64,000 bases of DNA from Candidatus Bipolaricaulota bacterium (GCA_030670905.1 DAOVAR010000001.1:285-64284), one strand, 5' to 3'. Shown: positions 1 through 15,959, counted from the stretch's first letter. Notes: a model not told the origin generated them from the sequence alone. Program-made: numbers and translations.

Positions 1-991
1 ACTTCTCCATGCCGATGTCCGCGCCAAAGCCGCTTTCTGTAACTACGTAGTCACCGAGCCTGATCGCTATCTTGTCGGCGATGATGGAGCTGTTGCCGTG
101 GGCAATGTTGGCAAACGGCCCTGCATGCACGAACGCGGGCTGCCCTTCCAGGGTCTGCATGAGGTTGGGCATTAGCGCTTCTTTCATCAGGACCGTCACT
201 GCACCGGCCACGCCCAGCTGCTCGACGCTGACCGGCTCGCCATTCTTGTTGAGGCCTACCATCATCTTGCCAAATCGTTTGCGCATGTCCTTAAACGACG
301 TGGTCAATGCAAGAATAGCCATGATTTCTGAAGCCACAGTGATATCAAAGCCAGTCGCCCGGGGGAATACCGGGCTTGGTGAGCCATCCTTTAGCTTGTC
401 GTCATTGAAGCCGACTTGGATCTCGCGCAGGGTGCGGTCACACACGTCGACCACGCGTCGCCAAGTGATGGTGTTCGGATCGATGTCCAGACGTTTCAGG
501 CCTCGTTTGGCAAGTTGTTCGTCGGTCTGGCGGCTCTCATGGTACAGACGCGTGTCGAGCGCGGCAGCGACCAGGTTGTGCGACACAGTGATCGCGTGGA
601 TGTCGCCGGTGAGATGCAGGTTGAAATCCTCCATCGGGACGACCTGCGAGTAGCCTCCGCCGGCTGCACCTCCCTTAATGTTGAAAGTGGGGCCCATGCT
701 GGGTTGCCGAATGCAGCATATCACGTTCTTGCGCAGCTGTGAGCCCATAGCCTGGACTAGGCCGACCATGGTCGTGGACTTACCTTCTCCAAGGGGGGTC
801 GGTGTGATGGCGGTGACGTCGATATACTTTCCGTCGGGCCGATCTTTGAGCCGCTCCAGGATATCTAGCTTGACCTTGGCCTTCCACATCCCGAACGGTT
901 CCAATTCCTCTTCGTTGATGCCCACTTCCCGGGCAATTTGGGTGATCGGCTTGAGTTTCGCCTCTTGCGCGATTTGAAGATCTGATTTCAT
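1..991 (-). CDS. fhs: Formate--tetrahydrofolate ligase (formyltetrahydrofolate synthetase), partial. The gene starts at 991 and its C-terminal part runs past the window edge at position 1.
   Basis: Minus-strand translation from the ATG at 989-991 gives [25 protein letters not shown]...[10 protein letters not shown]...[29 protein letters not shown], a typical FTHFS N-terminus with P-loop. GGAGG sits 7 nt upstream. It is absent from the ORF track because it runs off the edge. Confidence 0.9.
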
Positions 992-1027
992 TCACTAACC
1001 TCCTTGTAATTTGGGGGATGAACCTCT

Positions 1028-1903
1028 CTAGATATTTATTCCAGCTTCCTGCAAAATTGCCGGCACATGGCATTCCCAGCCCATGGTCATCAGATGTATC
1101 CCTTGACACATCTCCCGCGTCTGCCGAATTATACGGGCAGCGATCTTGATGCTTGTAGCAACCTTATCGTCGGTCTTCTTCATCTCGTCGATGATCGAGT
1201 CAGGAACGTTTACTCCGGCTACGTTCTTGTTCATGTAACGGGCCATGCCGACCGACTTCAAGAGCACAAACCCGAGCATCACTGGAACGCCAAGGGCCTT
1301 CGCTGCTTCCATGAACCGTCCGAACAGTTCCGGGTCATAAACAGCCTGCGTCTGGAAGAACTGCGCCCCGGCTTCTATCTTGCGTTCCATCTTTAAGAGC
1401 TGAAGCTCCATCGGCTCATACCCCGGTGTCACCACCGCTCCTAGATGAAAGGTTGGAACCCCCTCCAGACTCTCTCCTGCCATATCTGTCCCAGCCGTCA
1501 AACCCTTGGCAGCCATAAGGAGAGAGACGGAATCGAGGTCAAACACCGATTTTGCCTGCGGGTGATCCCCCAAAGTAACGTGATCCCCGGTAAGGCAGAG
1601 GACGTTCTCAATGCCCAATGCATAAGAGCTCAGAAGATCGGATTGGAGGGCAATGCGGTTGCGGTCACGCGTTGCAAGCTGGAATACCGGTTCGAACCCT
1701 GATTCTTTGAGAAGACGGCAGGAGGCGAGCGACCCCAGTCGCATCACCGAGCTCTGCTGGTCAGTAACGTTGACGGCGTGCACCTTGCCGCGTAAGAACT
1801 CAGCGTTCTCCATCATCTCCGCAGTATCGGTTCCCTTTGGAGGGGCGACCTCAGCAGTGACTGCGAATTCTCCTCTTGTGAGAGCCTGTTGTAACGATGT
1901 CAT
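1028..1903 (-). CDS. metF: 5,10-methylenetetrahydrofolate reductase
   Basis: 291 aa MTHFR-family protein (FFQTQAVYD, TIM-barrel MetF-like). It overlaps the metV stop by 4 nt. Confidence 0.85.
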   Translation of the reverse strand: MTSLQQALTRGEFAVTAEVAPPKGTDTAEMMENAEFLRGKVHAVNVTDQQSSVMRLGSLASCRLLKESGFEPVFQLATRDRNRIALQSDLLSSYALGIENVLCLTGDHVTLGDHPQAKSVFDLDSVSLLMAAKGLTAGTDMAGESLEGVPTFHLGAVVTPGYEPMELQLLKMERKIEAGAQFFQTQAVYDPELFGRFMEAAKALGVPVMLGFVLLKSVGMARYMNKNVAGVNVPDSIIDEMKKTDDKVATSIKIAARIIRQTREMCQGIHLMTMGWECHVPAILQEAGINI

Positions 1904-2574
1904 CTGTTATCACTCCTAGCTTCATCCCGTTCCAGAACTAGTGTCGATGGATTCGTATTTACCGAGTAGTCATGCACCTGCACCGAGGAAGCAACAAACT
2001 CCTTAAGCCTTCCGATTTCCTTTAGACGATCGTAAATCTCTATCCATACACAGTCGTTATCCGGGTTCACCTCACACTTTTCGTCCTTTGCCCCGCCGCA
2101 GGGTCCATTCAGCAGGCCCTTGGGGCAGCGTGTTACCGGGCATAGTCCGCCTGTCAGGTCCAGGATGCACTCCCCGCACATAGAGCAGTACTCCTGAAAC
2201 TGACCGAATCGCTTTACTGTTCCCAAGAAGAGCGTGTTGTTTGTCGGGTGAACAACCTTGCCGCTCACCTCCTGCGCGATCTGTGCGCCGCCACCGCAGG
2301 ACATGACAACTAGAGAATCTGCCTGGGCGATCTCTTCCTTGGTCTTGCGAAACTCCTTTCTTGCTTCCAGGAGATTACATCCAGGATCAAGGATTACCCA
2401 GCCGGAGACAACTTTTCCTTCGTCCTCTAGGTGATCCCTCATTGCCTTTACCTCTTCTTCCCCACCTGTCTTACAGACCGTTGCGCACTCAGAACAGCCA
2501 ACAAGAAAGATGACCTTGTCCCTCTCTAGGGACTGCAGGATCTCAGGGAATGGCTTTGCTTTCGTGATTATCAA
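1900..2574 (-). CDS. metV: MetV-type small Fe-S/zinc-ribbon subunit associated with MetF (MTHFR C-terminal-like domain)
   Basis: 224 aa with Cys clusters (CSECATVC, CSMCGECILDLTGGLCPVTRCPKGLLNGPCGG), as in acetogen MetV. Translationally coupled to metF and folD. Confidence 0.7.
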   Translation of the reverse strand: MIITKAKPFPEILQSLERDKVIFLVGCSECATVCKTGGEEEVKAMRDHLEDEGKVVSGWVILDPGCNLLEARKEFRKTKEEIAQADSLVVMSCGGGAQIAQEVSGKVVHPTNNTLFLGTVKRFGQFQEYCSMCGECILDLTGGLCPVTRCPKGLLNGPCGGAKDEKCEVNPDNDCVWIEIYDRLKEIGRLKEFVASSVQVHDYSVNTNPSTLVLERDEARSDNR

Positions 2575-3533
2575 CCTCTACCTCCTCTTACTGAAGCCTC
2601 AGCCGATTTGACCGTGTTGGCAAGTAGCATCGCGGTCGTCATTGGACCTACCCCACCAGGTACAGGGGTGATAAACCCGGCCACATTCCTGACGGTGTCG
2701 AAATCCACGTCTCCAGTTACCCTTGTCTTGGTTTTTCCTTCTTTGTCTTGCACTTTTATCCGGTTGATCCCGGCGTCGATCACGATCGCCCCAGGCTTTA
2801 CCATGTTTGCAGTGATTAATCCCGGCTTACCGACGCCGACCACTAGAATATCGGCCCTTTTGGTGTGCGAAGCGAGGTCTTGTGTCGCGATATGGCAGAC
2901 CGTAGTTGTGCAAAAGTGAGCCATCAGTAAGAGCGCCATGGGCTTACCCACAATCTCGGAATGCCCTACGACCACTGCTTCCATTCCATAGAGATCTTTG
3001 CCCAACGATCGAATCAAGCGCATCATTCCAATCGCTGTACACGGCGCGGGCATAGGGAGCGGCCATGTTAAAGAACGCTCTAGCCACTCCTCGCAGCTTT
3101 GCTCGTCTACTGCCGGTTTCTTGAAGAATGGCTGGGCCGCGTACACGATTCCGCCTTGATTTGCTGCCGATACCCCTTCTACGTCCTTGGATGAAGCGAT
3201 TTGTTCCTGCAAAACCCGGGTCCGCACGTCTTTTGGTAAGGGCAACTGTACGATAATCCCATGTACTGTAGGATCCTGGTTCAGCCGCTCCACTGTATCG
3301 GTTAAGAATGTCTGGTCACTCGTTGGGGAAACCTCGACCAACTGGTACTCAATACCCACCTCAGCGCAGCTGCGCGCTTGACTCTTGGCATAGATATGTG
3401 CTCCCTTGTTCTCCGTTGCCAGTATGGCAGCCAATTTTGGTGAGATTCCTGCGGAGGAAAGCTCTCGAACCTCCGATTGAAGTGTTGCTCTAACTTGTCT
3501 TGCTGCTGCTTCTCCATCGATTATCTTACCCAT
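2571..3533 (-). CDS. folD: Bifunctional methylene-THF dehydrogenase / methenyl-THF cyclohydrolase
   Basis: MGKIIDGEAAARQVR... with GHSEIVGKPMALLL, TVCH and GINR..GDVDF..ITPVPGGVGPMT motifs. It is 320 aa because of a roughly 25-30 aa insertion between the dehydrogenase core and PCT. Confidence 0.88.
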   Translation of the reverse strand: MGKIIDGEAAARQVRATLQSEVRELSSAGISPKLAAILATENKGAHIYAKSQARSCAEVGIEYQLVEVSPTSDQTFLTDTVERLNQDPTVHGIIVQLPLPKDVRTRVLQEQIASSKDVEGVSAANQGGIVYAAQPFFKKPAVDEQSCEEWLERSLTWPLPMPAPCTAIGMMRLIRSLGKDLYGMEAVVVGHSEIVGKPMALLLMAHFCTTTVCHIATQDLASHTKRADILVVGVGKPGLITANMVKPGAIVIDAGINRIKVQDKEGKTKTRVTGDVDFDTVRNVAGFITPVPGGVGPMTTAMLLANTVKSAEASVRGGRG

Positions 3534-5382
3534 TGGTTCTCCTTTTTCGTATATCCTTGAAATACAGGCTTTCTATGAAGGTATCACTAAACCCTTTGTA
3601 ATAAGAAAGCTCACAGTATTGTATCTGCTCTGCTAATTGTTGAGCCTTAATCCACTCTCCCTGGTTAAGCAGGCACAGCTTAGCTCCCTGACCAGCAGCA
3701 TTCCCCACCGGCGTGAGCTTTTCTAAAGGGAATGGAGGTAGCATCCCAATGCGCAAGACACTCCCCCTTCGCACATAATTGCCAAAAGCACCGGCAAGGT
3801 AAACTGCATCTATATCCTCTGGGGCGGCACCCCACTCGCGCAGGACGATATCCACGCCAGAGCGGATTGCTCCTTTGGCGAGCTGCAGTTCGCGAATATC
3901 TTGTTGGGTGATGTAAATCGGCTTATCGCCACCGCTTACAAGGAATTGGGGTTGATTTCGCTCATCTGGTGTAACTCGCTTAGCGTAGTGGAGGTCGTCT
4001 TGGGTTAACAGCCTTCCCTGTTCGTCGATTAGTTCAACCTTCCGCAGTTCTGCGATGAGGTCAATGAGCCCTGAGCCGCAGATACCTTTGGGAATACTGT
4101 TACCAATGACCTCAAGTTCTACTTCACTATCGCCGCTGAGCAAGACATGAGCAATGGCTCCTGGGGTAGCGCTCATCCCATGTTTGATCAGCGCTCCCTC
4201 GAACGCCGGGCCCGCCGGAGTGGAACAAGCCAGCATTCTCTCTTTGTTCCCCAGAACAATCTCCGCATTGGTCCCAATGTCTACGAAGAGGCTCAACTTA
4301 CTGCTTTGATGAAGACGGGTGAATAGCACACCTGCTGTGATATCTGCTCCTACATAACCGGAAATCGCCGGAATGATGTAGACCTGCCCTTCGGGATTGA
4401 TCTCTAACCCTAGCTCCTCTGCCGAAATGATGGTTCCATCGCGCAGTACAGGAATGTAGGGGCTATGATCAATCTGGGAGGGGTCAACGGCGGTGAACAG
4501 ATGAAGCATTGTGGGATTGCCAGCCACAGTAACTTTGTAGATGTGGGCGGGCTCAATAGCAGCTGTCTGACAGAGTTGGTGGATCATTCTGTCGATCCCT
4601 GAGACTACCGCTTGTTGCAGTTCTTTCAATCCGGTCTGGTCGTGTTCATGGACGTGTCTGATGCGCGCAATCACGTCTGCGCCAAAGCTCGTCTGGGGAT
4701 TCATCTGTGAGCGGACACCTATCTCTTGGCCACTACCAAGGTCCAGCAGATACCCGGCAACCGTTGTCGTACCGATATCGATAGCTAGGCCGTAGAGTGC
4801 TCCAGTAGTATCTCCTGGCTCAACGTCTAGGGCTCTATTCTCTTCTTTGGTGATGGTCGCCCTGAAATTCTTGACCCGTAGGACATGAGGAACCCTACGC
4901 AGCACAGAGATAGGAAGAACCATTCGCTCCACACCAAGTCCTTCCTGTATGCGGAGCGTATCGGGTCGTTGGTCTTCTTCACCCGGTGAAGGTAACTCCA
5001 GATAGACCTTCTCCATTCCGGGGTCAAGCGCGATATATAGCTCCTGCTTGAGTAGTTCCTTGGCTTGAACGGTCTCATCAATCTGGGGAACTTCAAGGAC
5101 GATATCACAATTTACCCTTTGTTGACAGGAGAGTCGCCAGCGTTGATCCAACTCTACTCGAGAGAGGTGAACCTCTTCTGACTCCGTTGGAGGCTTCAGT
5201 CCTTTGTGGATCAAAACACGGCATTTGCCACAGGTTCCCATCCCCCCGCAGGAGCTGGGGATGGAGTAGCCATGGCGCACCAGGAAGCGAAAAAGAGTCT
5301 CCCCTTCTTCTACCTCTAGCTTATCCTCTTGAGGAAGAATAATAAGTGTATGGCTATTTGCCCGGGCCGTATCTCTTATCAC
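3526..5382 (-). CDS. Reductive activator of corrinoid proteins (RACo-like). N-terminal 2Fe-2S ferredoxin domain plus an ASKHA ATPase domain (DUF4445).
   Basis: 618 aa. The N-terminus has CGGMGTCGKC plant-type ferredoxin cysteines. The rest is an acetate/sugar-kinase-like fold (DIGTTT, GNPTM, DIGTNAE). GTG start with an AGGAGA RBS. Confidence 0.75.
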   Translation of the reverse strand: MIRDTARANSHTLIILPQEDKLEVEEGETLFRFLVRHGYSIPSSCGGMGTCGKCRVLIHKGLKPPTESEEVHLSRVELDQRWRLSCQQRVNCDIVLEVPQIDETVQAKELLKQELYIALDPGMEKVYLELPSPGEEDQRPDTLRIQEGLGVERMVLPISVLRRVPHVLRVKNFRATITKEENRALDVEPGDTTGALYGLAIDIGTTTVAGYLLDLGSGQEIGVRSQMNPQTSFGADVIARIRHVHEHDQTGLKELQQAVVSGIDRMIHQLCQTAAIEPAHIYKVTVAGNPTMLHLFTAVDPSQIDHSPYIPVLRDGTIISAEELGLEINPEGQVYIIPAISGYVGADITAGVLFTRLHQSSKLSLFVDIGTNAEIVLGNKERMLACSTPAGPAFEGALIKHGMSATPGAIAHVLLSGDSEVELEVIGNSIPKGICGSGLIDLIAELRKVELIDEQGRLLTQDDLHYAKRVTPDERNQPQFLVSGGDKPIYITQQDIRELQLAKGAIRSGVDIVLREWGAAPEDIDAVYLAGAFGNYVRRGSVLRIGMLPPFPLEKLTPVGNAAGQGAKLCLLNQGEWIKAQQLAEQIQYCELSYYKGFSDTFIESLYFKDIRKRRTNG

Positions 5383-5583
5383 GAGTTTCTCCTAAATCAA
5401 GCCTTAGTGGCAGGAAACCCTGCTGGAGCGGCCTGAACCATACTCCATCTGCCCTCTGTTAACCAAGGTAAACACTAGTCACTTGTTGCATATCTGCTGA
5501 TGTGAAGTTCTCTAACCAGGCTACTACTAGAAATTCTACTGCAGAGCCTTCATCTGGGCAAGGAACCATACTTCAGGCTTGGT

Positions 5584-6207
5584 TCAGGTAAGGCTTTTCG
5601 CCAGCTTGGTTGCACTGGCGGCATCCGGAGCGTAACCATCGGCGCCGATCTTATCAGCGTAGCCTTGGGTGACTGGTGCACCACCAATGATGACTTTGAC
5701 CTGATCTCGAAGAGAAGCCTGTTTGAGTGCATCGATAACCTCTGGCATGCGAATCATCGTTGTTGTTAACAGCGCAGACATACCAACGATATTGGGCTTG
5801 TGTTCCTTCACTGCTTTGACGAACTCCTCAGCCGTTATTTCCGCCCCGAGGTTTATGACCTCAAAACCTGCTCCTTCGATCATCATTGCTACAAGATCCT
5901 TACCAATATCGTGCAGGTCACCCTCAACAGTACCGATCACGAACTTGCCGCGCGCCTCCACGCCGGCCTCAACCAACAGTGGCTTGAGCAATGTAACAGC
6001 GCCTTTCATTGTCGCGGCTGAGATGAGCATCTCGGGGACGTAGCGTTCCCCATCTTCGTATTCTTTGCCTACGATATCCATCGCTGGGGTCAATGCCTGA
6101 TCGAGTATCTCGCGCGCTTCAATACCCTTTGCCAATGCTTGGTTAGTAAGTTCAGCGATACCTTCCATCTCTCCGGCCAGCACTGCTTGTTTGATCTTAT
6201 CAAGCAT
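5584..6207 (-). CDS. Cobalamin-binding corrinoid protein (MtaC/MtgC-like)
   Basis: 207 aa with an N-terminal helical B12-cap and a Rossmann B12-binding domain carrying GDLHDIGK (DxHxxG). Confidence 0.85.
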   Translation of the reverse strand: MLDKIKQAVLAGEMEGIAELTNQALAKGIEAREILDQALTPAMDIVGKEYEDGERYVPEMLISAATMKGAVTLLKPLLVEAGVEARGKFVIGTVEGDLHDIGKDLVAMMIEGAGFEVINLGAEITAEEFVKAVKEHKPNIVGMSALLTTTMIRMPEVIDALKQASLRDQVKVIIGGAPVTQGYADKIGADGYAPDAASATKLAKSLT

Positions 6208-7005
6208 CTACTTCCTCCTTCTACATTTTTGTTGTTTGATGTATTGCATACAGTAGTTATCGCGTCCGAGTAACGTGCGTGATGCGTATACGGTATTCAT
6301 CATACCTGAATCAGTTGGGTCCATGATCGCCCCGTCCAGTCCGGCCTCGATAAGCATCGCCAGGAAGGTCCGGTTAAGAAGGTGGCGATTGGGCAACCCA
6401 AAGGAGACGTTACTCACCGCCGCAAAAGTCTTTACCCCAAGCTCTTCCTTTACTCGACGGACTCCTTGAAGTGCCTGCGTGCCTTGCTCAATGCCGCTTC
6501 CGACAGACATGCAGATCATATCCACATAGAGGCGATCATGGCTGATGCCCGCTCGATCGCACTTCTCTAGGAGTGCGCGCGTCTCCTCCACGCGATCCTC
6601 CGCGGTCTTAGGCATACCGTGTTCTCCCATGGCAAGGCCGATCACTTCGGCGCCGCTCTCCACGGCAAGTTCCACAAATCTTACGCTTTTCTTCTCGTTG
6701 CTCATAGAGTTTATCACCGGCGCGGTTGAACAGGCTTTCAGTCCAGCCTCCATTGCATCGGGATTGGAAGTGTCAATGGACAAGCGCACATCCCTGCCTA
6801 GCTCGTCTTCCACAACCCCGATCAGCCACTTGAGATCACTTACCTCGTTCTCCATGGATTGTCCGGCATTTATGTCAATGATCTGCGCGCCCGCTTCTGC
6901 CTGACCGCGAGCGAGTCGACGAATTGAGAGATCATCTTTGTTGTCTATTGCTTTGCCAACCTCCCTACGTGAAGAATTGATGAGTTCTCCGATGATCAAA
7001 AACAT
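6208..7005 (-). CDS. Methyltetrahydrofolate:corrinoid methyltransferase (AcsE/MtrH-like pterin-binding protein)
   Basis: MFLIIGELIN... (compare AcsE MLIIGERIN) and LLNRTFLAMLIEAGLDGAIMD (compare AcsE LINRTFLAMAMACGL). 265 aa. GGAGG lies just upstream of the ATG. Confidence 0.85.
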   Translation of the reverse strand: MFLIIGELINSSRREVGKAIDNKDDLSIRRLARGQAEAGAQIIDINAGQSMENEVSDLKWLIGVVEDELGRDVRLSIDTSNPDAMEAGLKACSTAPVINSMSNEKKSVRFVELAVESGAEVIGLAMGEHGMPKTAEDRVEETRALLEKCDRAGISHDRLYVDMICMSVGSGIEQGTQALQGVRRVKEELGVKTFAAVSNVSFGLPNRHLLNRTFLAMLIEAGLDGAIMDPTDSGMMNTVYASRTLLGRDNYCMQYIKQQKCRRRK

Positions 7006-7015
7006 ATGTCCTCCG

Positions 7016-7153
7016 TTAATTAGTATGTGCTGGTCGCGGAATCCCGAATTGAGTCCTGATTCTTTCTAGAATAGTTGTCGGCGTGCTGTAAATACGTGCA
7101 ACTTCTTGATCTGACAGGACTTCGTATTTCCCACCTATTCCAGCAACCTCCAT
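7016..7153 (-). pseudogene. 45-codon remnant resembling the N-terminus of an MttB-superfamily (trimethylamine/glycine-betaine type) corrinoid methyltransferase
   Basis: My own translation gives MEVAGIGGKYEVLSDQEVARIYSTPTTILERIRTQFGIPRPAHTN, then stop. It is preceded by AAGGAGG. The pattern E-L-x-x-E-x-x-I-x-x-T-x-x-L-x(5)-G-I matches MttB-family N-termini. Only about 300 nt separate it from the upstream gene, so the roughly 1.4-kb body is missing. It is below the ORF-track size cutoff. Confidence 0.4.
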
Positions 7154-7266
7154 AAAGAGAGAACCTCCTTGCTTTGTTACGATGATCCACTTGACTCAGA
7201 AACGGCCAATGAACAACAGAAGGAAATATTTCTTGTTCTCCGTTGCGTAATATTTAAGTTTGAGCG

Positions 7267-7296
7267 AATGTTACAAAGGGGCTCATGGTTTTGTCA
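7267..7296 (-). promoter_or_regulatory. Candidate sigma-70 promoter for the methyltransferase/C1 operon (-35 TTGACA, 18-nt spacer, -10 TAACAT)
   Basis: Minus-strand sequence reads CCCTTGACAAAACCATGAGCCCCTTTGTAACAT. A second TTGACA lies 23 nt upstream. Confidence 0.3.
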
Positions 7297-7463
7297 AGGG
7301 CTCCAATTGCCCCTGTCAACACGTCTCCCAAAGTTCCCCCGAGGGTGCTGTCGTAAAAACGCAGATCTACTGGCACTAGCTATCTCAATCTCATGAGACA
7401 CGGCACCGTAGCGTGCGTTGGTGGTCTAGCAATAGGCACCTTTACGCAACCGTGGCCCGCAGT

Positions 7464-8582
7464 TCAATCAGAGTGGAGTCGCTCTAGGTCTTGGAGGGTG
7501 GACTCAAGGGCCTCAATGAACCAGACATTTTGGGCCTTGCTGCCAACTGTAACGCGAAGAAACAAAGGAAGATCATAGTCCGCGCAGGGCCGTACGATAA
7601 CACCCTTGTCCAACAACATTTCCTGGACTGCTGTGGCTTGGGGCCCAATCTTGACGAGAACGAAGTTAGTGTGGCTCGTGACATATGACAGGCCCAGGCG
7701 TTCAAATTCGTTATATAGGTAGATGCGTCCCGCGTGATTTGTTGCCACTGTTTTCTCGAGAAATGCTTGGTCTTCTAGAGCCGCAACACCCGCGGCTTGG
7801 GCGAGCAAGTTGACTGAAAAGGGCTCCTTCACCCTATTGAGAGGCGCTAGAATTTCAGGCTCCGCGATGGCATACCCCAAGCGGATACCGGCCAGACCAT
7901 AAATCTTGGAGAACGTACGCATGATCATTGTGTTAGTTTGGCCGTCTCGAATATAGCGCAGGCTATTCGGATAGTCAGGAGAATCAACCAGCTCGTAATA
8001 GGCTTCATCGAAGATGACAAGCACGTGCTTTGGCGTCTTGTCCATAAAAGCCTCTACTTCAGCTGCGGTGACAATCGTTCCGGTAGGATTGTTTGGGTTG
8101 CAGACAAAGATGAGCTTTGTCTTATCGCTAATCGCTTGAAGCATGGCTTCGAGGTCCAGTCCAAAGTTTCTCAGCGGTATCTTAACCAGCGCTGCTCTCA
8201 TCACGTGGGTGTAGATATCATAGACCGGAAATGAAGATTGACTTACGATTACTTCACTCTGTTCATCCAAGTACGCCAGGCAAGTCTGCATGATGAGCCC
8301 ATCGGCCCCATTGCCCACGGTTAGCTGTTCAGGTTCAATCCCAAGGTGCTCTGCAAGGGCCTTGAGCAGATTGTGGCTCTGTACGTCTGGATAAAGGTTC
8401 AAATCAGAAAGCCTTTCCTTTATTGCAGCTAATGCCCTAGGCGAAGGGCCAAGTGGGTTTTCGTTGGATGCCAGCTTAGTTACATCCTTGAGGCCGTATT
8501 CCCTTTGCACTTCATCAATGGGCTTACCCGGCACATATGCTTTGATGGCATTCAGGCCACGCTGTTGTCTGACATGGGTCAT
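7464..8582 (-). CDS. hisC: Class-II PLP aminotransferase of the histidinol-phosphate/aromatic aminotransferase family
   Basis: 372 aa with LASNENPLGPSP, NPNNPTG and SKIYGLAGIRLGY motifs. It is the last gene of the ior/acd operon, which suggests an aromatic or 2-oxoacid-forming role rather than histidine biosynthesis. Confidence 0.8.
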   Translation of the reverse strand: MTHVRQQRGLNAIKAYVPGKPIDEVQREYGLKDVTKLASNENPLGPSPRALAAIKERLSDLNLYPDVQSHNLLKALAEHLGIEPEQLTVGNGADGLIMQTCLAYLDEQSEVIVSQSSFPVYDIYTHVMRAALVKIPLRNFGLDLEAMLQAISDKTKLIFVCNPNNPTGTIVTAAEVEAFMDKTPKHVLVIFDEAYYELVDSPDYPNSLRYIRDGQTNTMIMRTFSKIYGLAGIRLGYAIAEPEILAPLNRVKEPFSVNLLAQAAGVAALEDQAFLEKTVATNHAGRIYLYNEFERLGLSYVTSHTNFVLVKIGPQATAVQEMLLDKGVIVRPCADYDLPLFLRVTVGSKAQNVWFIEALESTLQDLERLHSD

Positions 8583-8585
8583 CTA

Positions 8586-10625
8586 TTAGTTCCTCCTCTT
8601 TTGTATCACTCGCACGTCTCCAACTAGGACTCCCGTTGAGAACACGAATACAGGGTTCAGGTCGGCCTCTACAATCTCAGGGTAGTGGAAGGGAAGGCGC
8701 GAAAAATTGACTAAGATCTTTGCTACGGCACTTAGGTCTCGTGTTGGCTGTCCTCGTGTCCCTTCAAGGATAGGGAAGGCCTTAATCTCTCGCATCATTG
8801 CATTGGCCTCATCGTAGTCAAGTGGGGCAATGCGGAGTGAAATATCTCGAAGGATCTCGGTATAGATTCCCCCCACCCCAAAGGCAATCACCGGGCCGAA
8901 CTGCGCATCCCGTGAGAACCCGATCAGGATCTCCATGGCATCGGTGATCATTGGATAGATAATCACCCCCTGGAAATCATGCTCACCCGTTCGCTGTTCG
9001 ATCGAGTGAAATGCGGCGACTACTTCATCATCTGTGCGAATGCCAGTGATGACACCGCCAATCTCCGATTTGTGTATGATATCGTGGGACACGACCTTTA
9101 TCACCACCGGATAGCCGATCGAGCGGCTTCCACTCACGGCATCATCCATAGATGTAGCAAGCCGATATTCCGGAACCGGGATCCCGTTTTCACGCAACCA
9201 GGTCATTCCTTCCGGCTCGAGCAGAGGGCCGTCACTATCACTGAGGAGAGACCCTATCCTTGCCGGAATCTTTGGTAGCAGACGATTCTTCCTTTTGTAC
9301 TCCTCATAGGTTGCCATCTGTGAAAGTACCGTCACCGCCCGTTCCCCAGTAACGAAGTTGGGGACGCCATGCTCTTTCAGATAAGGCAGACTGAGAGCCA
9401 CCGTTCTGCCGGCCATAAAGTTTGCGGCAATGGGCTCTGTGACCGCGGTAGCAGCGCCGCAGATTCCCCGCGCAAGAGGAAGAGCATCTAGATAAGGCGT
9501 GCAGACGTTGATGGCTAGTGCGGCGTCATATTCTCCCAATGCTTCATGCAATGTTTTCTGATAGTCACTCTCAGTTCCCTCAACAGTGAGATCGATTGGG
9601 TTCTCCAATGAACAAACCGAGGGAAGAAAGGTGGAGAGCTTTGCTTGTAGGCTTGGGGTAGGTTCATCGAGGCGTAGCCCCACTGCTTCAGCTCGGTCCG
9701 CTGCGAGGACCCCGGGACCACCGGAATTAGTAACGATGACAAGACGTCGTCCCTTTACGGGGGGAAGCGTAACGAACCCTCGACACAGGTCGAACATCTC
9801 CTCTATTGTGTCCACACGAATTGCGCCACAGTGGCGGAAGGCGGCATCGTACACAGAGTCCGATCCAGCCATCGATCCCGTATGAGACAAGGTTGCCCGG
9901 TGGCCGGACACGCTACATCCCGCTTTGATCACTACAAGTGGCTTTTCTCGAGCTAGACGTTGCGCGGCCACCACGAACGCGCGGCCGTCAGAAACGCTTT
10001 CAATATATAGGGCAACAACCTTAGTATCGGAATCGTCGACAAGATAGTCAAGGAAATCGATCTCGTTGAGATCAACACCATTCCCATAGCTTGCGAACTT
10101 CGAGAACCCTAGCCCCTGCTCTTCAGCCCACGAAAGGACGGCACCCCCGAGAGCCCCGCTTTGAGTTACAAACGCTACATTGCCCTGTGGAGGATGGGTT
10201 TCCAGTGTTGGGTACAGGCGATATCTCGTGTTGATGATTCCAGCACAGTTTGGTCCGCACAAGCGGATTCCATATCGCTTTGCCACAGCCGCAATCCGTG
10301 CTTCTTCCTTGGTGTTCCCTACCTCTGAGAAGCCTGCGGTAATGATCACAGCAGCCTTCACGCCAGCTTTTCCACAATCCTGAAGAACGTCTGCCACTGT
10401 CGGAGCAGGCGAGGCGATTACAGCAAGATCAATGGACCGATCGATGTGAGAGACTGCGTCGTACCCAGGAACTCCGTGCGCGCCTTGGCCCTTAGGGTTA
10501 ACCGCACAAACATTATTGTAGCCCCCGTTAACAATCTTGCGGATCAACTCGTAGCCGAGTTTCCCTTTGGAGGTGGAACCGATTACCGCGACTCCACGAG
10601 GATAGAAGAGCTCTCTTAGGCTCAA
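8586..10625 (-). CDS. ADP-forming acyl-CoA synthetase (acetate/aryl-acetate--CoA ligase, NDP-forming), alpha and beta domains fused
   Basis: 679 aa. The N-terminal CoA-binding and succinyl-CoA-synthetase-like domains are followed by a C-terminal ATP-grasp domain. This is typical ACD architecture. Confidence 0.85.
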   Translation of the reverse strand: MSLRELFYPRGVAVIGSTSKGKLGYELIRKIVNGGYNNVCAVNPKGQGAHGVPGYDAVSHIDRSIDLAVIASPAPTVADVLQDCGKAGVKAAVIITAGFSEVGNTKEEARIAAVAKRYGIRLCGPNCAGIINTRYRLYPTLETHPPQGNVAFVTQSGALGGAVLSWAEEQGLGFSKFASYGNGVDLNEIDFLDYLVDDSDTKVVALYIESVSDGRAFVVAAQRLAREKPLVVIKAGCSVSGHRATLSHTGSMAGSDSVYDAAFRHCGAIRVDTIEEMFDLCRGFVTLPPVKGRRLVIVTNSGGPGVLAADRAEAVGLRLDEPTPSLQAKLSTFLPSVCSLENPIDLTVEGTESDYQKTLHEALGEYDAALAINVCTPYLDALPLARGICGAATAVTEPIAANFMAGRTVALSLPYLKEHGVPNFVTGERAVTVLSQMATYEEYKRKNRLLPKIPARIGSLLSDSDGPLLEPEGMTWLRENGIPVPEYRLATSMDDAVSGSRSIGYPVVIKVVSHDIIHKSEIGGVITGIRTDDEVVAAFHSIEQRTGEHDFQGVIIYPMITDAMEILIGFSRDAQFGPVIAFGVGGIYTEILRDISLRIAPLDYDEANAMMREIKAFPILEGTRGQPTRDLSAVAKILVNFSRLPFHYPEIVEADLNPVFVFSTGVLVGDVRVIQKRRN

Positions 10626-11218
10626 GACGTCCCTCTAACACGCAAGCCGGCATCAAATGCAGCCACATTGTGCTTTGCTCTACGCGGCCACCGTGCTCGA
10701 ACAACCTCCGTCATCTCGTCGGCATTGAGCACTTCGTCCAATCTTGTGTTTCCAAATGCCGCTCCAAGCACGAAGATGTTCGCGGCTACGTATCCCCCGT
10801 CGATTTTGGGAAGCTCTTTTGGATCGAGATAGATCAGTCGAGCGTTACTAACTCGGATGGCCTCCAGCACCGATTCGAGCGATGGGTAGGCAGCTTCTCC
10901 AAGCATCACCGCGGTTGGCTCCCACGCGTGACCATATAGCAGGAAGTCGCCTTCAGGCCGCGCGTACCGTACTCCCTTCAGCGCTTCAGAGCGTTCCATG
11001 GCAATCACAAGATGAGCCCCATCTTCTCGGATGTGTGGTCCTACTCCCCTTCGCCCCAATCGTAACTCGGCCTTTACGAACCCTCCACGCTGTGCCATTC
11101 CCTTCGTGGGAAGGAAACTGACTGGATGCCCCTTGTGAACAGCTGCCCGCATAATCAGGTCAGCAAGCGTCAGAATACCCTGACCACCAACGCCAACAAG
11201 GTAGATGTCGTAGCTCAT
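10622..11218 (-). CDS. iorB: Indolepyruvate:ferredoxin oxidoreductase, beta subunit
   Basis: MSYDIYLVGVGGQGILT... is a pyruvate/ketoisovalerate oxidoreductase gamma-like domain. The likely start is the internal ATG at 11218, overlapping the iorA stop (ATGA). The ORF-track start at 11266 would overlap iorA by 52 nt. Confidence 0.85.
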   Translation of the reverse strand: MSYDIYLVGVGGQGILTLADLIMRAAVHKGHPVSFLPTKGMAQRGGFVKAELRLGRRGVGPHIREDGAHLVIAMERSEALKGVRYARPEGDFLLYGHAWEPTAVMLGEAAYPSLESVLEAIRVSNARLIYLDPKELPKIDGGYVAANIFVLGAAFGNTRLDEVLNADEMTEVVRARWPRRAKHNVAAFDAGLRVRGTS

Positions 11219-13086
11219 GTTCCGTCCTCCTTCTCGAGGGCTCCTGTCGGGCAAACCGCGGCACACAGTCCGCAGCCGTTACATAGAGCGGCGTCGATAA
11301 CGATGGATTCGTGCTTAATTGACAGGGCGGGACATCCAGTGGCGGTGACACACTGTTTGCACAGTACGCACTTCTTGGAGATCAAGCGCACATTTCCCGT
11401 GCGTTTGCCCTGCCGCCTTACTTGGATGGCACATTCGCGACGGGAGAGGACAACCTTTACCCCCGGAAGGGTGAGACATCCTTCGATGGTGGAGGTTGCT
11501 CCCTTTAGATCGTATGGATCGATGACAAAGAATTGGTCTACCCCGAGTCCTGGAATCACCCGCGCAAGGTCGATTCGGCGTCCCCCCGTCCGTTGGAATG
11601 TCTGATCCGTGCCTGGATTCACCTGCATCCCCGTCATGCTTGTCCATCCGTTGTCCATGATGATAAGAGTCAATGGAGTCTGGTGCTGAATCGCGTTGAG
11701 CAATCCCGGAATCCCGGCGTGGAAAAACGTTGAATCTCCAATAGTAGCGATTACCGGTGTCTTAACCCCTCCATGAACGTAGCCTTGTGCCAGACTGACA
11801 CTTGCTCCCATGGAGACCTCCGTCCACACCGTGTTAAACGGTGGGTTCATTCCGAGGATTGTACACCCGATGTCGCCAGTGATGATCACCTCGTCTTTGT
11901 CAAGATCTAGATTCTGGATCGCTTGATTGATGGCCATATAGGTTCCGCGGTGGGGACATCCGGCGCAGACGGTAATTGGACGTCGAGCCGCAAGTGTCTC
12001 TGTTGCTCTATTCCCTTTGAAGCGATCCCCAGGGATGCCTAATCTGAGCGCTATATTGAGCCCTTGTAGCACATGATCAACATCGTACTCCCCCACGCGG
12101 CTTAAGGGCCCATCATCAAGTTTGCCGATGATCAGGCCGGCGAATCCGGTCCTATGTGCTTCGATGTGAAGACCGCGTTCAAGGTGCGGTTCTAACTCTT
12201 CCAAGGTAAGGATCGACTTGCAGCGAGCAAACAGCTTTTGTACATCTGCTGCTGGAAATGGAGTTGTTGTCACTGTACGCAAAATCGAGACCTTTGTCTT
12301 GTCGAATCCATACTCGACAGCAAGGTCAAACGCCTCTTCCAGATACGCCACCGCTGCCCCAACAGCCACAATTCCAAGGCCGCCGGGGTTTTCAGCTAAT
12401 TGCAAAGAGTTTAGCTCCATTTCCTGTATGACCTCGCTTGCCTTTTCGAGGCGGGCAATCACATCCCGGTGTTGCGTGATACAGATAGCGGCGCCGGCTT
12501 TGGTGTACTTGGCGATGTTCCGCTCGAGGATTGGTATGCGGTCGGCAGGCGGTAGCGGATCAGCTATCTGTAGGGCTGTCTTGGCATTGGCAATCGAGGT
12601 AACCAACCTAATTAGGACTGGTGTCTTTACGCGTTCCGAGAGCTCAAAAGCTACCTGCGTCAACCGATAGGTGTCCCTTATCGAGCTTGGTTCGAGCATT
12701 GGCAGGTCCGACATCAAGGCAAATCCACGCGTGTCCTGCTCAGCCATCCCCGCGCTAGCGCCCGGATCGTCGGCAACGTAGATCACTAGTCCACCATTAC
12801 ATCCGGAATAAGCGATAGAGATTAGCGAGTCGTAGGCTACATTCAGCCCCGACATCTTCATCGTACACAGAGCTCGTTGGCCGGTCCATGCCGCTCCGGC
12901 GGCTATTTCAAAGGCAACCTTCTCGTTTACACTCCACTCCACATATCTACCGGGAAGATCCATCGCCAACAGGCTCGTCAGCGCGCCGGTGGAGGGGGTA
13001 CCTGGATAACCGGTGACTACCTTTACACCGGCCTGTAGCGCCCCATAGGCAAGGGCTTCATTGCCACTCAGTACCTTAATTTGCAA
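11215..13086 (-). CDS. iorA: Indolepyruvate:ferredoxin oxidoreductase, alpha subunit (TPP-binding, with C-terminal 2x[4Fe-4S] ferredoxin domain)
   Basis: 623 aa with TPP-binding GDIGC and GDSTFFHAG motifs. The C-terminus has CVLCKQC...CPALS and CNGCGLCAAVCP cysteine motifs. Confidence 0.9.
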   Translation of the reverse strand: MQIKVLSGNEALAYGALQAGVKVVTGYPGTPSTGALTSLLAMDLPGRYVEWSVNEKVAFEIAAGAAWTGQRALCTMKMSGLNVAYDSLISIAYSGCNGGLVIYVADDPGASAGMAEQDTRGFALMSDLPMLEPSSIRDTYRLTQVAFELSERVKTPVLIRLVTSIANAKTALQIADPLPPADRIPILERNIAKYTKAGAAICITQHRDVIARLEKASEVIQEMELNSLQLAENPGGLGIVAVGAAVAYLEEAFDLAVEYGFDKTKVSILRTVTTTPFPAADVQKLFARCKSILTLEELEPHLERGLHIEAHRTGFAGLIIGKLDDGPLSRVGEYDVDHVLQGLNIALRLGIPGDRFKGNRATETLAARRPITVCAGCPHRGTYMAINQAIQNLDLDKDEVIITGDIGCTILGMNPPFNTVWTEVSMGASVSLAQGYVHGGVKTPVIATIGDSTFFHAGIPGLLNAIQHQTPLTLIIMDNGWTSMTGMQVNPGTDQTFQRTGGRRIDLARVIPGLGVDQFFVIDPYDLKGATSTIEGCLTLPGVKVVLSRRECAIQVRRQGKRTGNVRLISKKCVLCKQCVTATGCPALSIKHESIVIDAALCNGCGLCAAVCPTGALEKEDGT

Positions 13087-13149
13087 TTGACTCCTCCATC
13101 TGCCTGCAGTGTTGTTCCTCGCCTAATACTCTTCACTACATCGATTTGC

Positions 13150-15477
13150 TCATCCTTTCTTGGTGTGATCAAGGGCGGCAAGGACCCTCTCCGGTGTCAA
13201 TGGTAGGTTGTGGATGCGGACGCCTATGGCGTTTGCCACAGCGTTCGCCACCGCTGGAGCAACCGGTGTTAGCGCAGGCTCGCCAATCCCTTTGGCGCCG
13301 AACGGACCGACGCCTGTTCCCGACTCTAGGATGATCGCCTTCGTGGTAGGAAGATCCTTTGCTGTGGGGATCAGATACTCGGACAATGAAGGCGTCCGGA
13401 TTACGCCATCCTTGACTTGTACCTCTTCCATGAGAGCGTAGCCGATTCCCTGGGCGCTTCCGCCTTGGATCTGTCCCTCAACGGCGATTGGATTGAATGC
13501 CCGACCCACATCATGGCATCCGACGGACTTGAGCACTGTAATCTCACCGGTCTTGGTATCCACCGCCACCTCAATGGCGTGCGCACTGAAGGTAAAGTCT
13601 GGAAAGATGTCTCCTTGGAGGTTCTCGGGGTTGAGCTTATCAGCGAATGGAGCCGCAAACAGAGCTAGGTGTTGCAGCTTCAGCCCATCAGCGGCGCACA
13701 TCTTGCTCAGATCCGCTAGCGAAAGCCATTGCTGCGGATCGCTCTTGATGAACACCTTGTTCTCAGCTAGATCCAGGTTGTTGGGCTTTTCCCTAAAATG
13801 CTCTGCCGCGCGATCGAGCAACACTTCCCGCACCATCTTGGCCGCCTTGAGCGTGGCATTGCCGGACATGTAGAGCTGCCTGGTAGCAGTTGTTGTGCCT
13901 GCCAGTGGTGTGACCGCCGAATCTGAGTTGTAGAAGGTCACGTCTGTGAGTGACACCCCCAGCACTTCGGCAGCGATCAGACACAGACTGTTTGCCTGAC
14001 CTGCGCCCAGGTCGGGTGCGCCACACCGCACCACGATTGTGCCATCTTGCTCGATACCAACCCAGGAACGTGAGGTATCATGGAACCACATGATCCGACC
14101 ATAGCTCTGCATCGTGGTGGCAAAACCCTGGCCCATCTTGATTGCATCGTCAGAAATGTTCTCTTTCTTTCCCAGAGCTGCCAGCGCTTGTGTGGCTTCT
14201 TCCTCTAGCCAAACCGCGCTCTTGATCTGCTGGCCGATAGCGTTGGAGTCACCGGTCTTCAGATAGTTGATCTTGCGGAACTCAAGCGGGTCCATCGCTA
14301 AGGCTTTTGCCATCTCATCCATCTGTTGCTCGTACGCTACGGCAGCCTGCGCACCTCCGAAGCCTCGAAATGCACTGGCAAAAGGATTATTAGTGGCAAC
14401 CGAGACACTATCAACGGTAAGGTTTTCGATTCGATAAGGGCCGCATGAGGTGACAGTAGCGTAGAGAAGGACGTAGGGACTGAGATAGGGGTAAGCCCCT
14501 GAATCAGAGATCATGTTGATCTTGGCGCCGGTGATGCGGCCATTGTTCTTCACGCCGGTGCGGTGAGTGATGATGAACGGATGGCGCTTGGAATGTGCGA
14601 GGATAGATTCCTCTCGCGTGTACGCCAACCGCACAGGGCGCCCTGTTTCTTTTGTTAGGAGCGCCAGGAAGATCTCCACGGTAATGTCCTCCTTACCACC
14701 AAATCCGCCTCCAATCATAGTACCTCGAACGCGTACCTTGTTGTGTGGTACCCCTACGGCTTGAGCAATCGATCGGAAGTGTTCTACCACCTGTGTGCAG
14801 ACGCGGATGTTGATCACGTCTTGATCATCCATCCAGGCTACACCGGCTTCTGGTTCAATATAGGAGTGATCAAGGAATGGCATGCGAAAGGTGTTCTCCA
14901 CGATCAGATCAGCCGAGGCCAACCCCGCTTCCGCGTTCCCCTTGCGGATCTTCCAGCTGGAGACGATATTGTCTGGCTCGTGGATTATTGGCGCGCCTGG
15001 CTTCATCGCTTCGAGTGGGTCGAAGACGCCTGGCAGCGCATCGTATTCAATCTCGATCAGTTCAATGGCTCGCTCTGCGATGGCAAGGGTCTCCGCCGCG
15101 ACAAGTGCGATAGGCTCACCAACGAATCGTACTCCGCGTGTGGCTAGCACCGGCGCATCTGACTCCTTGCGCCGTTCCTGTCCCGTCTGGCCAGGCATGT
15201 CGGTGATTAGTTTCCCGTCTGGCAAGTCATCTGCTGTCAACACACAGGCCACGCCCGCAAGCGCCCGTGCCTTGTTCACATTCAACTGCTTGATATGTGC
15301 TGAGGGTTCACTGCTGCGAAAGACCTTGGCGTGAAGCATGTTTGGCATTGTGAAATCACCGGCGTAGACGGTTGCGCCTACTGCCTTGCCGAGCGCGTCG
15401 ACGCGCCGCAATGGTCTCCCGACTTGGCGAAGGAGAGGAAGAGCTGGCTGGGGTAGCGCTTTGCCCTTCGCCGTCAT
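13150..15477 (-). CDS. Molybdopterin-binding large subunit of a xanthine-dehydrogenase-family hydroxylase (enzyme A)
   Basis: 775 aa with the GGGFGGK signature and a C-terminal FGAKGIGEPAL active-site Glu motif. Confidence 0.85.
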   Translation of the reverse strand: MTAKGKALPQPALPLLRQVGRPLRRVDALGKAVGATVYAGDFTMPNMLHAKVFRSSEPSAHIKQLNVNKARALAGVACVLTADDLPDGKLITDMPGQTGQERRKESDAPVLATRGVRFVGEPIALVAAETLAIAERAIELIEIEYDALPGVFDPLEAMKPGAPIIHEPDNIVSSWKIRKGNAEAGLASADLIVENTFRMPFLDHSYIEPEAGVAWMDDQDVINIRVCTQVVEHFRSIAQAVGVPHNKVRVRGTMIGGGFGGKEDITVEIFLALLTKETGRPVRLAYTREESILAHSKRHPFIITHRTGVKNNGRITGAKINMISDSGAYPYLSPYVLLYATVTSCGPYRIENLTVDSVSVATNNPFASAFRGFGGAQAAVAYEQQMDEMAKALAMDPLEFRKINYLKTGDSNAIGQQIKSAVWLEEEATQALAALGKKENISDDAIKMGQGFATTMQSYGRIMWFHDTSRSWVGIEQDGTIVVRCGAPDLGAGQANSLCLIAAEVLGVSLTDVTFYNSDSAVTPLAGTTTATRQLYMSGNATLKAAKMVREVLLDRAAEHFREKPNNLDLAENKVFIKSDPQQWLSLADLSKMCAADGLKLQHLALFAAPFADKLNPENLQGDIFPDFTFSAHAIEVAVDTKTGEITVLKSVGCHDVGRAFNPIAVEGQIQGGSAQGIGYALMEEVQVKDGVIRTPSLSEYLIPTAKDLPTTKAIILESGTGVGPFGAKGIGEPALTPVAPAVANAVANAIGVRIHNLPLTPERVLAALDHTKKG

Positions 15478-15959
15478 TCTTGAGCCTTCTGTTGCATCAT
15501 CTTCTTCGCTGCCATCTTGATCGCACTGATGATCTGAGCGTAGCCGGTGCAGCGGCAGAGGTTTCCCGAGATCGCTTCGCGGATCTCAGTCTCGGAAGGG
15601 TTCGGGTTCTCATCAAGCAGCGCCTTCGCTGCGATGATCATCCCTGAGGTGCAGTACCCGCACTGGACAGCGCCTGCATCTGCAAAGGCTTCCTGTAGCG
15701 AGTGAGGGCTCTCCATTGTTCCTAATCCAGCATTTGTGAGGATCCGCGCACCATCTGCTTGCCAGGCGAGGACGAGGCAACTATTGATGACTTTCCCATT
15801 CAGCTCTACAGCACAGGCTCCGCAATCTCCCTTTTCACATCCGTTCTTAACATCTGTATAGTTCAGGCTTCGCAGCGCTTCAAGCAAGGTTACATTAGGA
15901 AACAGTGTCACCTGATGCCGACGACCATTGATATTAAGAGTGATAACCTTTGCCTTCAT
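15474..15959 (-). CDS. [2Fe-2S]-binding small subunit of the Mo-hydroxylase (enzyme A)
   Basis: 161 aa with CEKGDCGACAV and QCGYCTSGM...CRCTGY motifs (CoxS/XdhC-like). Confidence 0.9.
   Translation of the reverse strand: MKAKVITLNINGRRHQVTLFPNVTLLEALRSLNYTDVKNGCEKGDCGACAVELNGKVINSCLVLAWQADGARILTNAGLGTMESPHSLQEAFADAGAVQCGYCTSGMIIAAKALLDENPNPSETEIREAISGNLCRCTGYAQIISAIKMAAKKMMQQKAQE

Follow-up and report, generated by a model that had tools for sequence, protein, structure and literature searches.

A probable Wood–Ljungdahl methyl-branch operon of Bipolaricaulota with a partly eroded MttB-type methyltransferase cassette at its 5' end

The stretch of DNA analyzed here (the window; 64,000 nucleotides) originates from a Candidatus Bipolaricaulota bacterium (GCA_030670905.1 DAOVAR010000001.1:285-64284) and carries an operon of seven co-directional open reading frames (ORFs) on the minus strand of positions 1–7300. 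From 5' to 3', the operon encodes a methylcorrinoid:tetrahydrofolate (THF) methyltransferase (MT2), a corrinoid protein (CoP), the activator RACo, FolD, MetV, MetF and Fhs (Table 1). The seven gene families named in the original prediction are all supported by Pfam and NCBIfam searches. The bacterial Wood–Ljungdahl (WL) methyl-branch set is present in the operon as FolD, MetF/MetV and Fhs, the last of which is cut by the window edge after residue 330 and comprises 585 residues in relatives. MetV is Cys-rich, with 13 Cys residues. The genes had been described as mostly overlapping. Three junctions do overlap (RACo/FolD by 8 nt, FolD/MetV by 4 nt and MetV/MetF by 4 nt) and MT2 and CoP abut, but a 36-nt gap precedes Fhs and a 201-nt spacer separates CoP from RACo. 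The closest homologues are found in Bipolaricaulota (Acetothermia/OP1) contigs from metagenome-assembled genomes (MAGs) and in metagenome contigs, with identities of 88–96% for MetF (95–96% to the MetF of Bipolaricaulota contigs in one comparison), 87–91% for RACo and 90–97% for FolD. Related loci are denoted below by numbers with the prefix L. FolD contains an insertion of ~25–30 residues (VYAAQPFFKKPAVDEQSCEEWLERSLTWPLPMPA) at residues ~130–163, between the catalytic and NAD(P)-binding domains. This insertion is absent from all solved FolD structures and is kept across the clade (L081–L092 and L161–L172).

Table 1. Genes, regulatory sites and remnant in the operon region of the window
Feature	Position	Strand	Basis and description
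Promoter-like site TTGACA-18-TAACAT	7268-7297	-	Consensus scan, 10/12 matches
Conserved 5' leader, ~115 nt	7154-7267	-	Near-palindrome AAGAAATATTTCCTT and AAGGAGG ribosome-binding site; alignment of window, L162 and L082
45-codon stub, N-terminal remnant (~36 residues) of MttB-family MT-I	7016-7153	-	tblastn and N-terminal profile
MT2, 265 aa	6208-7005	-	Pterin_bind PF00809, 98 bits; methylcorrinoid:tetrahydrofolate methyltransferase, MtgA/MtqA-like
Corrinoid protein (CoP), 207 aa	5584-6207	-	B12-binding_2 PF02607, 77.5 bits; B12-binding PF02310, 104 bits
CoP-RACo spacer	5383-5583	-	~126-nt variable segment bounded by direct repeat AGTATGGTTC
RACo, 618 aa	3526-5382	-	Fer2 and RACo linker/middle/C-terminal Pfam domains; 2Fe-2S and ASKHA; ATP-dependent reductive activator of corrinoid proteins
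FolD, 320 aa	2571-3533	-	THF_DHG_CYH and THF_DHG_CYH_C; methylene-THF dehydrogenase / methenyl-THF cyclohydrolase
MetV	1900-2574	-	PF12225, 120 bits; DUF5981 / MTHFR_C; small subunit of clostridial-type methylene-THF reductase
MetF, methylene-THF reductase	1028-1903	-	MTHFR PF02219, 131 bits
Fhs, formate-THF ligase, N-terminal 330 residues	2-991	-	FTHFS PF01268, 497 bits, profile positions 1-309 of 556

The first three genes of the operon were placed using NCBIfam models and PDB matches. MT2 reaches 272.9 bits on NF005719 (cut-off 259) and falls far short on the AcsE model (CODH_ACS_meth, NF040758), where it attains 141.3 bits and 370 are required. Its matches to PDB structures place MT2 at roughly the same distance from 2yci (MeTr/AcsE; 164 bits) and 4o0q (MtgA of Desulfitobacterium hafniense; 145 bits), and its identity to the Pterin_bind protein (AcsE) of the relatives' acs clusters is ~26%. 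The identification of MT2 as AcsE was rejected because the AcsE model score is far under its cut-off, the partner is an MtgC/MttC-like single-subunit corrinoid protein rather than AcsC/AcsD, and a separate AcsE is encoded in the acs cluster of relatives. CoP displays a DLHDIG motif of the DxHxxG type at residues 97–102, and its best models are MtgC, MtbC and MttC. The best NCBIfam model is MtgC_2 (217 bits, under the cut-off of 370), and TIGR02370 gives 195.9 bits, slightly under its cut-off of 215.3. Among known structures, CoP matches 1y80 with 212 bits and the MttC structure 7xcn with 164 bits.

RACo matches PDB 3zyy with 390 bits, and its Cys residues lie at positions 45, 51, 54 and 86. 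On the AcsV model (NF040756), RACo attains 476.6 bits, below the cut-off of 800. Orthologues with 64–71% identity occur in stand-alone MttB-MT2-CoP-RACo cassettes, and the relatives' acs cluster contains a second RACo (649 aa, 36% identical to the window RACo) between cooC and acsC. Together, these two observations indicate that the operon RACo belongs to the methyltransferase cassette. A primary role as AcsV, the activator of the corrinoid iron–sulfur protein (CoFeSP), was rejected because the relatives' acs cluster has its own RACo and the orthologues travel with MttB cassettes. In one of these cassettes (L167, 64% identical RACo), the MTTB gene is split into ORFs of 328 and 130 aa beside a PylD homologue (L167 4978-6450, minus strand; 6987-7832, plus strand). 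The split gene is likely to encode a pyrrolysine-containing trimethylamine methyltransferase produced by TAG read-through. The methyltransferase genes are of the methylamine/quaternary-amine type rather than the AcsE/CoFeSP type, in agreement with the demethylation type originally proposed.

A complete system of the MttB superfamily combines CoP, MT2 and a RACo-type activase, all present in the window, with a substrate-specific methyltransferase (MT-I; about 480 aa, PF06253), which is not present in the window beyond a stub. An intact MttB-family gene is located directly upstream of MT2 in L003 and L004 and also in L166, a more distant relative; the order is MttB-MT2-CoP-RACo. This gene encodes 484–548 residues, scores 363–367 bits on Pfam MTTB and 412–428 bits on TIGR02369 (cut-off 525), and is a non-pyrrolysine member because it has no in-frame stop. 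At the same position in the window, the 458-nt gap (7006-7463) contains just a 45-codon ORF, which is preceded by a good AAGGAGG ribosome-binding site. Residues 7–37 of the stub are 48% identical to residues 6–36 of L003 MttB over 31 aa (E=5.5e-4), and this is the sole tblastn match in the window. An N-terminal profile (first 70 residues; 118 MttB homologues) identifies the stub with E=8.2e-6, and the runner-up among 1,879 six-frame window segments has E=2.1. With the full-length MttB profile, the stub is again the only match in the six-frame translation (E=0.0058). The 45-aa and 52-aa stubs are too short to give a Pfam match, even at E<=10. At the DNA level, the 7006-7463 gap has no blastn similarity to the type-A loci (L001-L080), so that the protein-level match of the stub is what links them. 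An MT-I of any family (MttB, MtaB, MtbB, MtmB or URO-D-like) was not found among the Pfam-scanned window ORFs of at least 150 aa, a set that leaves out a few minor or overlapping ORFs.

Because the stub matches the MttB N-terminus at the place of MttB, the MT-I gene has been deleted in the window lineage, and its first ~36 codons are left downstream of the promoter, leader and ribosome-binding site that once served it. The same stub is found in all three collinear contigs (L162, L169 and L170), which dates the deletion before their divergence (dS about 0.2–0.3). The stub evolves fast. Its protein identity between the window and L169/L170 is 69–71%, compared with 94% for the adjacent MT2, and its conserved GGxYxVLS motif is degraded in both of these contigs. 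With MT-I gone, the operon and the window hold nothing able to load a methyl group onto the corrinoid, and the route is complete from the methyl-corrinoid onward. The uninterrupted path from methyl-corrinoid to formate plus ATP that had been proposed is chemically right, with enzymes that connect, but Fhs is cut by the window edge and the MT-I that loads the corrinoid is missing.

Selection on the orphaned genes was evaluated from pairwise ratios of nonsynonymous to synonymous substitution rates (dN/dS) between the window and the three contigs with the same MT-I deletion (L162, L169 and L170). The ratios are 0.14–0.155 for MT2, 0.09–0.10 for CoP and 0.19–0.21 for RACo, and those of the folate enzymes are 0.11 (FolD), 0.08 (MetF) and 0.09–0.10 (Fhs). 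The low MT2 and CoP values across genomes that share the deletion show that purifying selection continued after the loss of MT-I, at a level that matches the core folate enzymes. Given this constraint, both proteins are probably still active, and their likeliest partners are MT-I enzymes whose genes lie elsewhere. Extra MttB paralogues are located nearby in the type-A relatives L004, L173 and L174.

The upstream region of the operon contains a promoter-like site whose two hexamers are unchanged in the alignment with L162 and L082, followed by a conserved leader. The site fits the mRNA start near 7260 that had been anticipated. The near-palindrome AAGAAATATTTCCTT in the leader resembles an operator. 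A second, weaker promoter-like site (TTGCCC-17-TAGAAT, 5561-5533) lies within the CoP–RACo spacer. The ~126-nt variable segment of this spacer is present in the window, L164, L165, L087, L169 and L170 and absent from L162, L163, L161 and L082. In L164, the spacer segment is the sole region upstream of RACo-FolD-MetV-MetF-Fhs, and this distribution suggests an internal promoter and past recombination among operon variants. Neither the leader nor the spacer matches a riboswitch or other RNA family of Rfam, whether the whole window is searched at the gathering threshold or 5350-7480 at E<=1, and no intrinsic-terminator-like site was found in 5300-7600.

Comparison of the relatives reveals a series of cassette states. 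L162 is collinear with the window at 90–94% nucleotide identity, and L169 and L170 match window positions 7347 to 1 at 91.6% nucleotide identity in a single high-scoring segment pair of 7,351 nt. L082 and L083 keep the promoter and leader but have lost MttB and most of MT2, of which a 42-aa remnant persists, and CoP-RACo-FolD-MetV-MetF-FolE-Fhs is intact. In L164 and L165, MT2 and CoP are both absent, and the RACo-FolD-MetV-MetF-Fhs genes are preceded by just a ~185-nt spacer segment with the promoter-like site. The clade thus ranges from an intact cassette through the stub and the loss of MT2 to the loss of both MT2 and CoP, and the folate genes are always kept. This series, together with the deletion of MT-I, contradicts the notion that the branch is hard-wired to a three-component methyltransferase system.

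Further observations on the relatives concern the history of the operon. The window RACo is just 42–46% identical to the same-position RACo of the type-A relatives L001-L004 and L173, in contrast to 81–97% for the flanking CoP, MetV, MetF and Fhs. The low RACo identity between highly similar flanks indicates that a RACo(+FolD) block was exchanged between operon variants and that the operon has a mosaic history. Directly after metF, a 27–33-codon duplicate of the fhs 5' end is found in L161 (4807-4905) and L089 (2226-2306), relatives with folE between metF and fhs, and is a trace left when folE was inserted or the genes were rearranged. In the Bipolaricaulota relative L004 (6058-12600), genes for the small and large subunits of a NiFe-hydrogenase are positioned between RACo and a MetV'-MetV-MetF-MetV2-MetF2 run, which hints at a hydrogenase-linked methylene-THF reductase. 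A second MetV-MetF pair also occurs in L005, L006 and L092. L003 (QMYR01000133.1) is labelled Candidatus Thorarchaeota archaeon, and its MttB-MT2-CoP-RACo-MetV-MetF operon is 80–88% identical at the amino acid level to Bipolaricaulota contigs. The L003 contig is probably mis-binned.

The 64-kb window contains no genes for carbon monoxide dehydrogenase/acetyl-CoA synthase (CODH/ACS; acsA/cooS, acsB, acsC, acsD or acsE), as originally stated. The window ends inside fhs, and the flank past position 1 was read in relatives. The collinearity of L169 and L170 with the window extends from IorA/IorB down to position 1, past which both contigs complete fhs and then carry folE. After folE, the opposite strand encodes CooS (632 aa, Prismane), AcsE (Pterin_bind/CdhD), AcsD (325 aa), CooC (256 aa), the second RACo and AcsC (FeS and CdhD). 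In L163, the orthologous CooS scores 693 bits on TIGR01702 (cut-off 478), and NF003376 gives 268 bits for a partial AcsD. A CooS gene is likewise found after Fhs(-FolE) in L164, L171, L172, L173, L004 and L002. It is the next gene in all relatives that share the MetF–Fhs adjacency and extend past Fhs (L169, L170, L163, L164, L171, L172 and the type-A loci L173 and L004). AcsB was reached in no locus among the relatives' contigs. No formate dehydrogenase was detected in the window, and FdhA/NuoG-like and NuoF-like genes adjoin CooS in L002 and L171.

Based on the synteny with collinear relatives, a cooS/acs cluster is strongly expected to start ~1.4 kb outside the window on the side of position 1, and the apparent lack of a CODH/ACS partner is very probably an artefact of the window edge. 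The original prediction of a dedicated oxidative route apart from an acs/CODH cluster named a CODH/ACS cluster immediately beyond the edge as the observation that would speak against it. Such a cluster lies just past the corresponding position in the 91.6%-identical collinear contigs, although it cannot be read on the window itself, and the synteny contradicts that part of the prediction.

Upstream of the operon, past the 458-nt gap, the same strand carries genes for an aminotransferase, an ADP-forming acyl-CoA synthetase, IorB/IorA-like subunits of a 2-oxoacid:ferredoxin oxidoreductase (Pfam POR; POR_N/TPP_enzyme_C/Fer4), two tandem molybdoenzymes of the xanthine-dehydrogenase family and GlnA (7464-20526). 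In L004, GlnA directly abuts MttB, and the 13-kb upstream block of the window represents an insertion/deletion difference between relatives. Elsewhere in the window, separate genes encode FTCD_C (cyclodeaminase; 24122-24760, plus strand) and FTCD_N (formiminotransferase; 46644-47558, minus strand). Fermentation of amino acids, purines or histidine would also supply the one-carbon (C1)-THF pool of FolD and Fhs. The window contains no RnfC2 or Hdr/Mvh partner genes for MetFV. The remainder of the window is housekeeping, including an fts/mur cluster, BamA, PNPase, PPDK and FtsY.

The operon is best explained as the THF (methyl) branch of an ordinary Bipolaricaulota WL neighbourhood, with a partly eroded MttB-type methyltransferase cassette at its 5' end, and we assign this reading a probability of roughly 0.7. 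The operon core is RACo-FolD-MetV-MetF-Fhs, and the 5' accessory cassette, which is of the methylamine/quaternary-amine type, has the order MttB(MT-I)-MT2-CoP-RACo when complete. An MT-I encoded elsewhere would methylate Co(I)-CoP, using a substrate that is presumably a methylated amine, and RACo would spend ATP to re-reduce oxidized Co(II)-CoP. MT2 would hand the CoP methyl group to THF. The resulting methyl-THF would partly be converted to acetyl-CoA via AcsE, CoFeSP and ACS of the adjacent convergent acs cluster and partly be oxidized through MetFV, FolD and Fhs to formate and ATP, supplying reductant. Splitting of methyl-THF between acetyl-CoA and oxidation is a known pattern of methylotrophic acetogens. 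Partial methyl oxidation through the branch is therefore plausibly normal behaviour of such acetogens and not a special architecture.

A further proposal, in which our confidence is somewhat below even, is that the MT2-CoP-RACo unit, long kept after the loss of the cis MT-I (dS about 0.2–0.3), is a generic methyl-corrinoid-to-THF hub. The hub would be wired transcriptionally into the WL methyl branch and fed by several dispersed and possibly non-MttB MT-I enzymes. The clade, with its intact, stub, MT2-less and MT2- and CoP-less members, would then form a natural series for the gain and loss of methylotrophy modules on the WL core of an uncultured phylum.

Several points weigh against the WL-branch reading. 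The acs cluster of the window's own genome is extrapolated from relatives, as the window ends inside fhs, and no CODH gene follows Fhs in L161 (4.6 kb available) or L082 (2.3 kb available), two loci whose gene order differs from that of the window in having FolE between MetF and Fhs. No MT-I able to serve CoP was seen for this genome within the 64-kb window. The pairwise dN/dS values of MT2 and CoP are averaged over the whole divergence and are compatible with a very recent loss of function. The MT2/CoP module is dispensable in sister lineages and could be disappearing in the window lineage too.

The CODH-free flanks of L161 and L082 and the lack of CODH/ACS genes in 64 kb would also suit a self-contained oxidative route, in which a non-acetogenic demethylating anaerobe without CODH/ACS uses a three-component system to convert methyl groups via methyl-THF to formate and ATP. 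The absence of the WL pathway from some Bipolaricaulota clades (PMC9992828) and the abundance of amino-acid fermentation genes in the window are consistent with such an organism. This route is nonetheless quite unlikely, since CooS is present in all collinear MetF–Fhs relatives that extend past Fhs, followed by AcsE-AcsD-CooC-RACo2-AcsC where the contigs are long enough, and since the MT-I required for demethylation has been deleted from the operon. The deletion itself can be read in another way, with MT2 and CoP as functionless relics that are merely co-transcribed after the loss of MT-I. The operon would then serve as the WL methyl branch and a C1-THF pool (formate to and from methyl-THF, and formimino-THF from histidine or purine breakdown), and RACo may have been taken over for CoFeSP. 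The stub in place of MT-I, the 42-aa MT2 remnant of L082 and L083, the RACo-FolD-MetV-MetF-Fhs operons of L164 and L165 without MT2 and CoP, the promoter-like site before RACo common to the window and L164, and the FTCD_N and FTCD_C genes of the window all fit this decay. We regard it as unlikely, because MT2 and CoP are full-length, their dN/dS values (0.09–0.155) are as low as those of FolD, MetF and Fhs in three deletion-sharing genomes at dS of about 0.2–0.3, and the relatives' acs clusters have their own RACo.

A transfer in the opposite direction, from THF to an acceptor, was also considered. In this case, MT2-CoP-RACo would function as a split, methionine-synthase-like or otherwise methyl-THF-dependent corrinoid methyl donor. 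MT2 is a homologue of the pterin-binding module of MetH and CoP of its B12-binding module, and a Met_synt_B12-like ORF accompanies the cassette in L166. However, neither the operon nor the window contains a homocysteine-binding (S-methyl_trans) gene, the ancestral partner is an MttB-family MT-I, and the best models of CoP are MtgC, MtbC and MttC, which makes this role highly improbable.

A stand-alone oxidative C1 route without CODH/ACS would have been notable, and the evidence for a conventional WL neighbourhood split by the window edge removes this claim. That methylated amines enter the WL pathway in this lineage (KB1/OP1) is an earlier proposal. Modestly new are two points: in this clade the cassette is physically joined to the methyl-branch operon, and it is shed in steps, with an orphan and still-constrained CoP/MT2 pair persisting. 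In metabolic reconstruction from MAGs, matches to MT2, CoP and RACo alone would lead to an over-call of "methylotrophy", and a contig edge read as "no WL pathway" would lead to an under-call of that pathway.

The WL part of the operon resembles acetogen WL clusters, in which fhs, folD, metV and metF stand beside acsA-E, cooC and acsV, including those of Bipolaricaulota/Acetothermia and KB1 (PMC4993014, PMC9992828). As in these clusters, Fhs, FolD and MetV-MetF share one operon, and a convergent cooS-acsE-acsD-cooC-RACo-acsC cluster follows in the collinear relatives. Unlike them, the window operon has a methylamine-type MT2-CoP-RACo unit at its 5' end, a MetFV without RnfC2 or Hdr/Mvh genes, and a FolD with a clade-specific insertion. 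For Bipolaricaulota, both WL-positive and WL-negative clades have been described (PMC9992828). In the OP1-related KB1 bacteria, glycine betaine demethylation by an MttB homologue that feeds the WL pathway has been proposed, including possible oxidative operation of the pathway (PMC4993014). MT2 and RACo also share their folds and families with AcsE (MeTr) and AcsV/RACo of the CODH/ACS systems of Moorella and Carboxydothermus (PDB 2E7F, 2YCI, 3ZYY; 164 bits for MT2 and 390 bits for RACo). They differ from these proteins in their model scores (141 vs 370 for MT2 and 477 vs 800 for RACo), and relatives encode a separate AcsE (~26% identity) and RACo (36% identity) in the acs cluster.

The cassette itself is most readily compared with two methyltransferase systems. 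In D. hafniense, non-pyrrolysine MttB homologues are reported to feed the methyl group of glycine betaine into the WL pathway (Ticak et al. 2014). The MtgB/MtgC/MtgA system of this organism (glycine betaine:THF; PDB 4O0Q) likewise consists of a B12-binding_2 and B12-binding corrinoid protein with DxHxxG, a Pterin_bind MT2 and a RACo-type activator, and relatives of the window have a non-pyrrolysine MttB-family MT-I directly upstream. In contrast to that system, the window MT-I is a stub, the MtgC models are matched below cut-off (217 vs 370), MT2 is slightly closer to AcsE structures than to MtgA, and the cassette stands in one operon with FolD-MetVF-Fhs. In Eubacterium limosum, the MtqC/MtqA pair is shared by several separately encoded MttB-family MT-I enzymes (MtpB, MtcB and MtyB) (see also PMC8604678), so a CoP and MT2 without an adjacent MT-I can be a hub for MT-I encoded elsewhere. 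The orphan state in the window differs in that it arose by deletion of a cis MT-I, and the trans-acting MT-I would be a predicted one. By this analogy, an MtqC/MtqA-like hub would be the most economical account of the purifying selection on MT2 and CoP.

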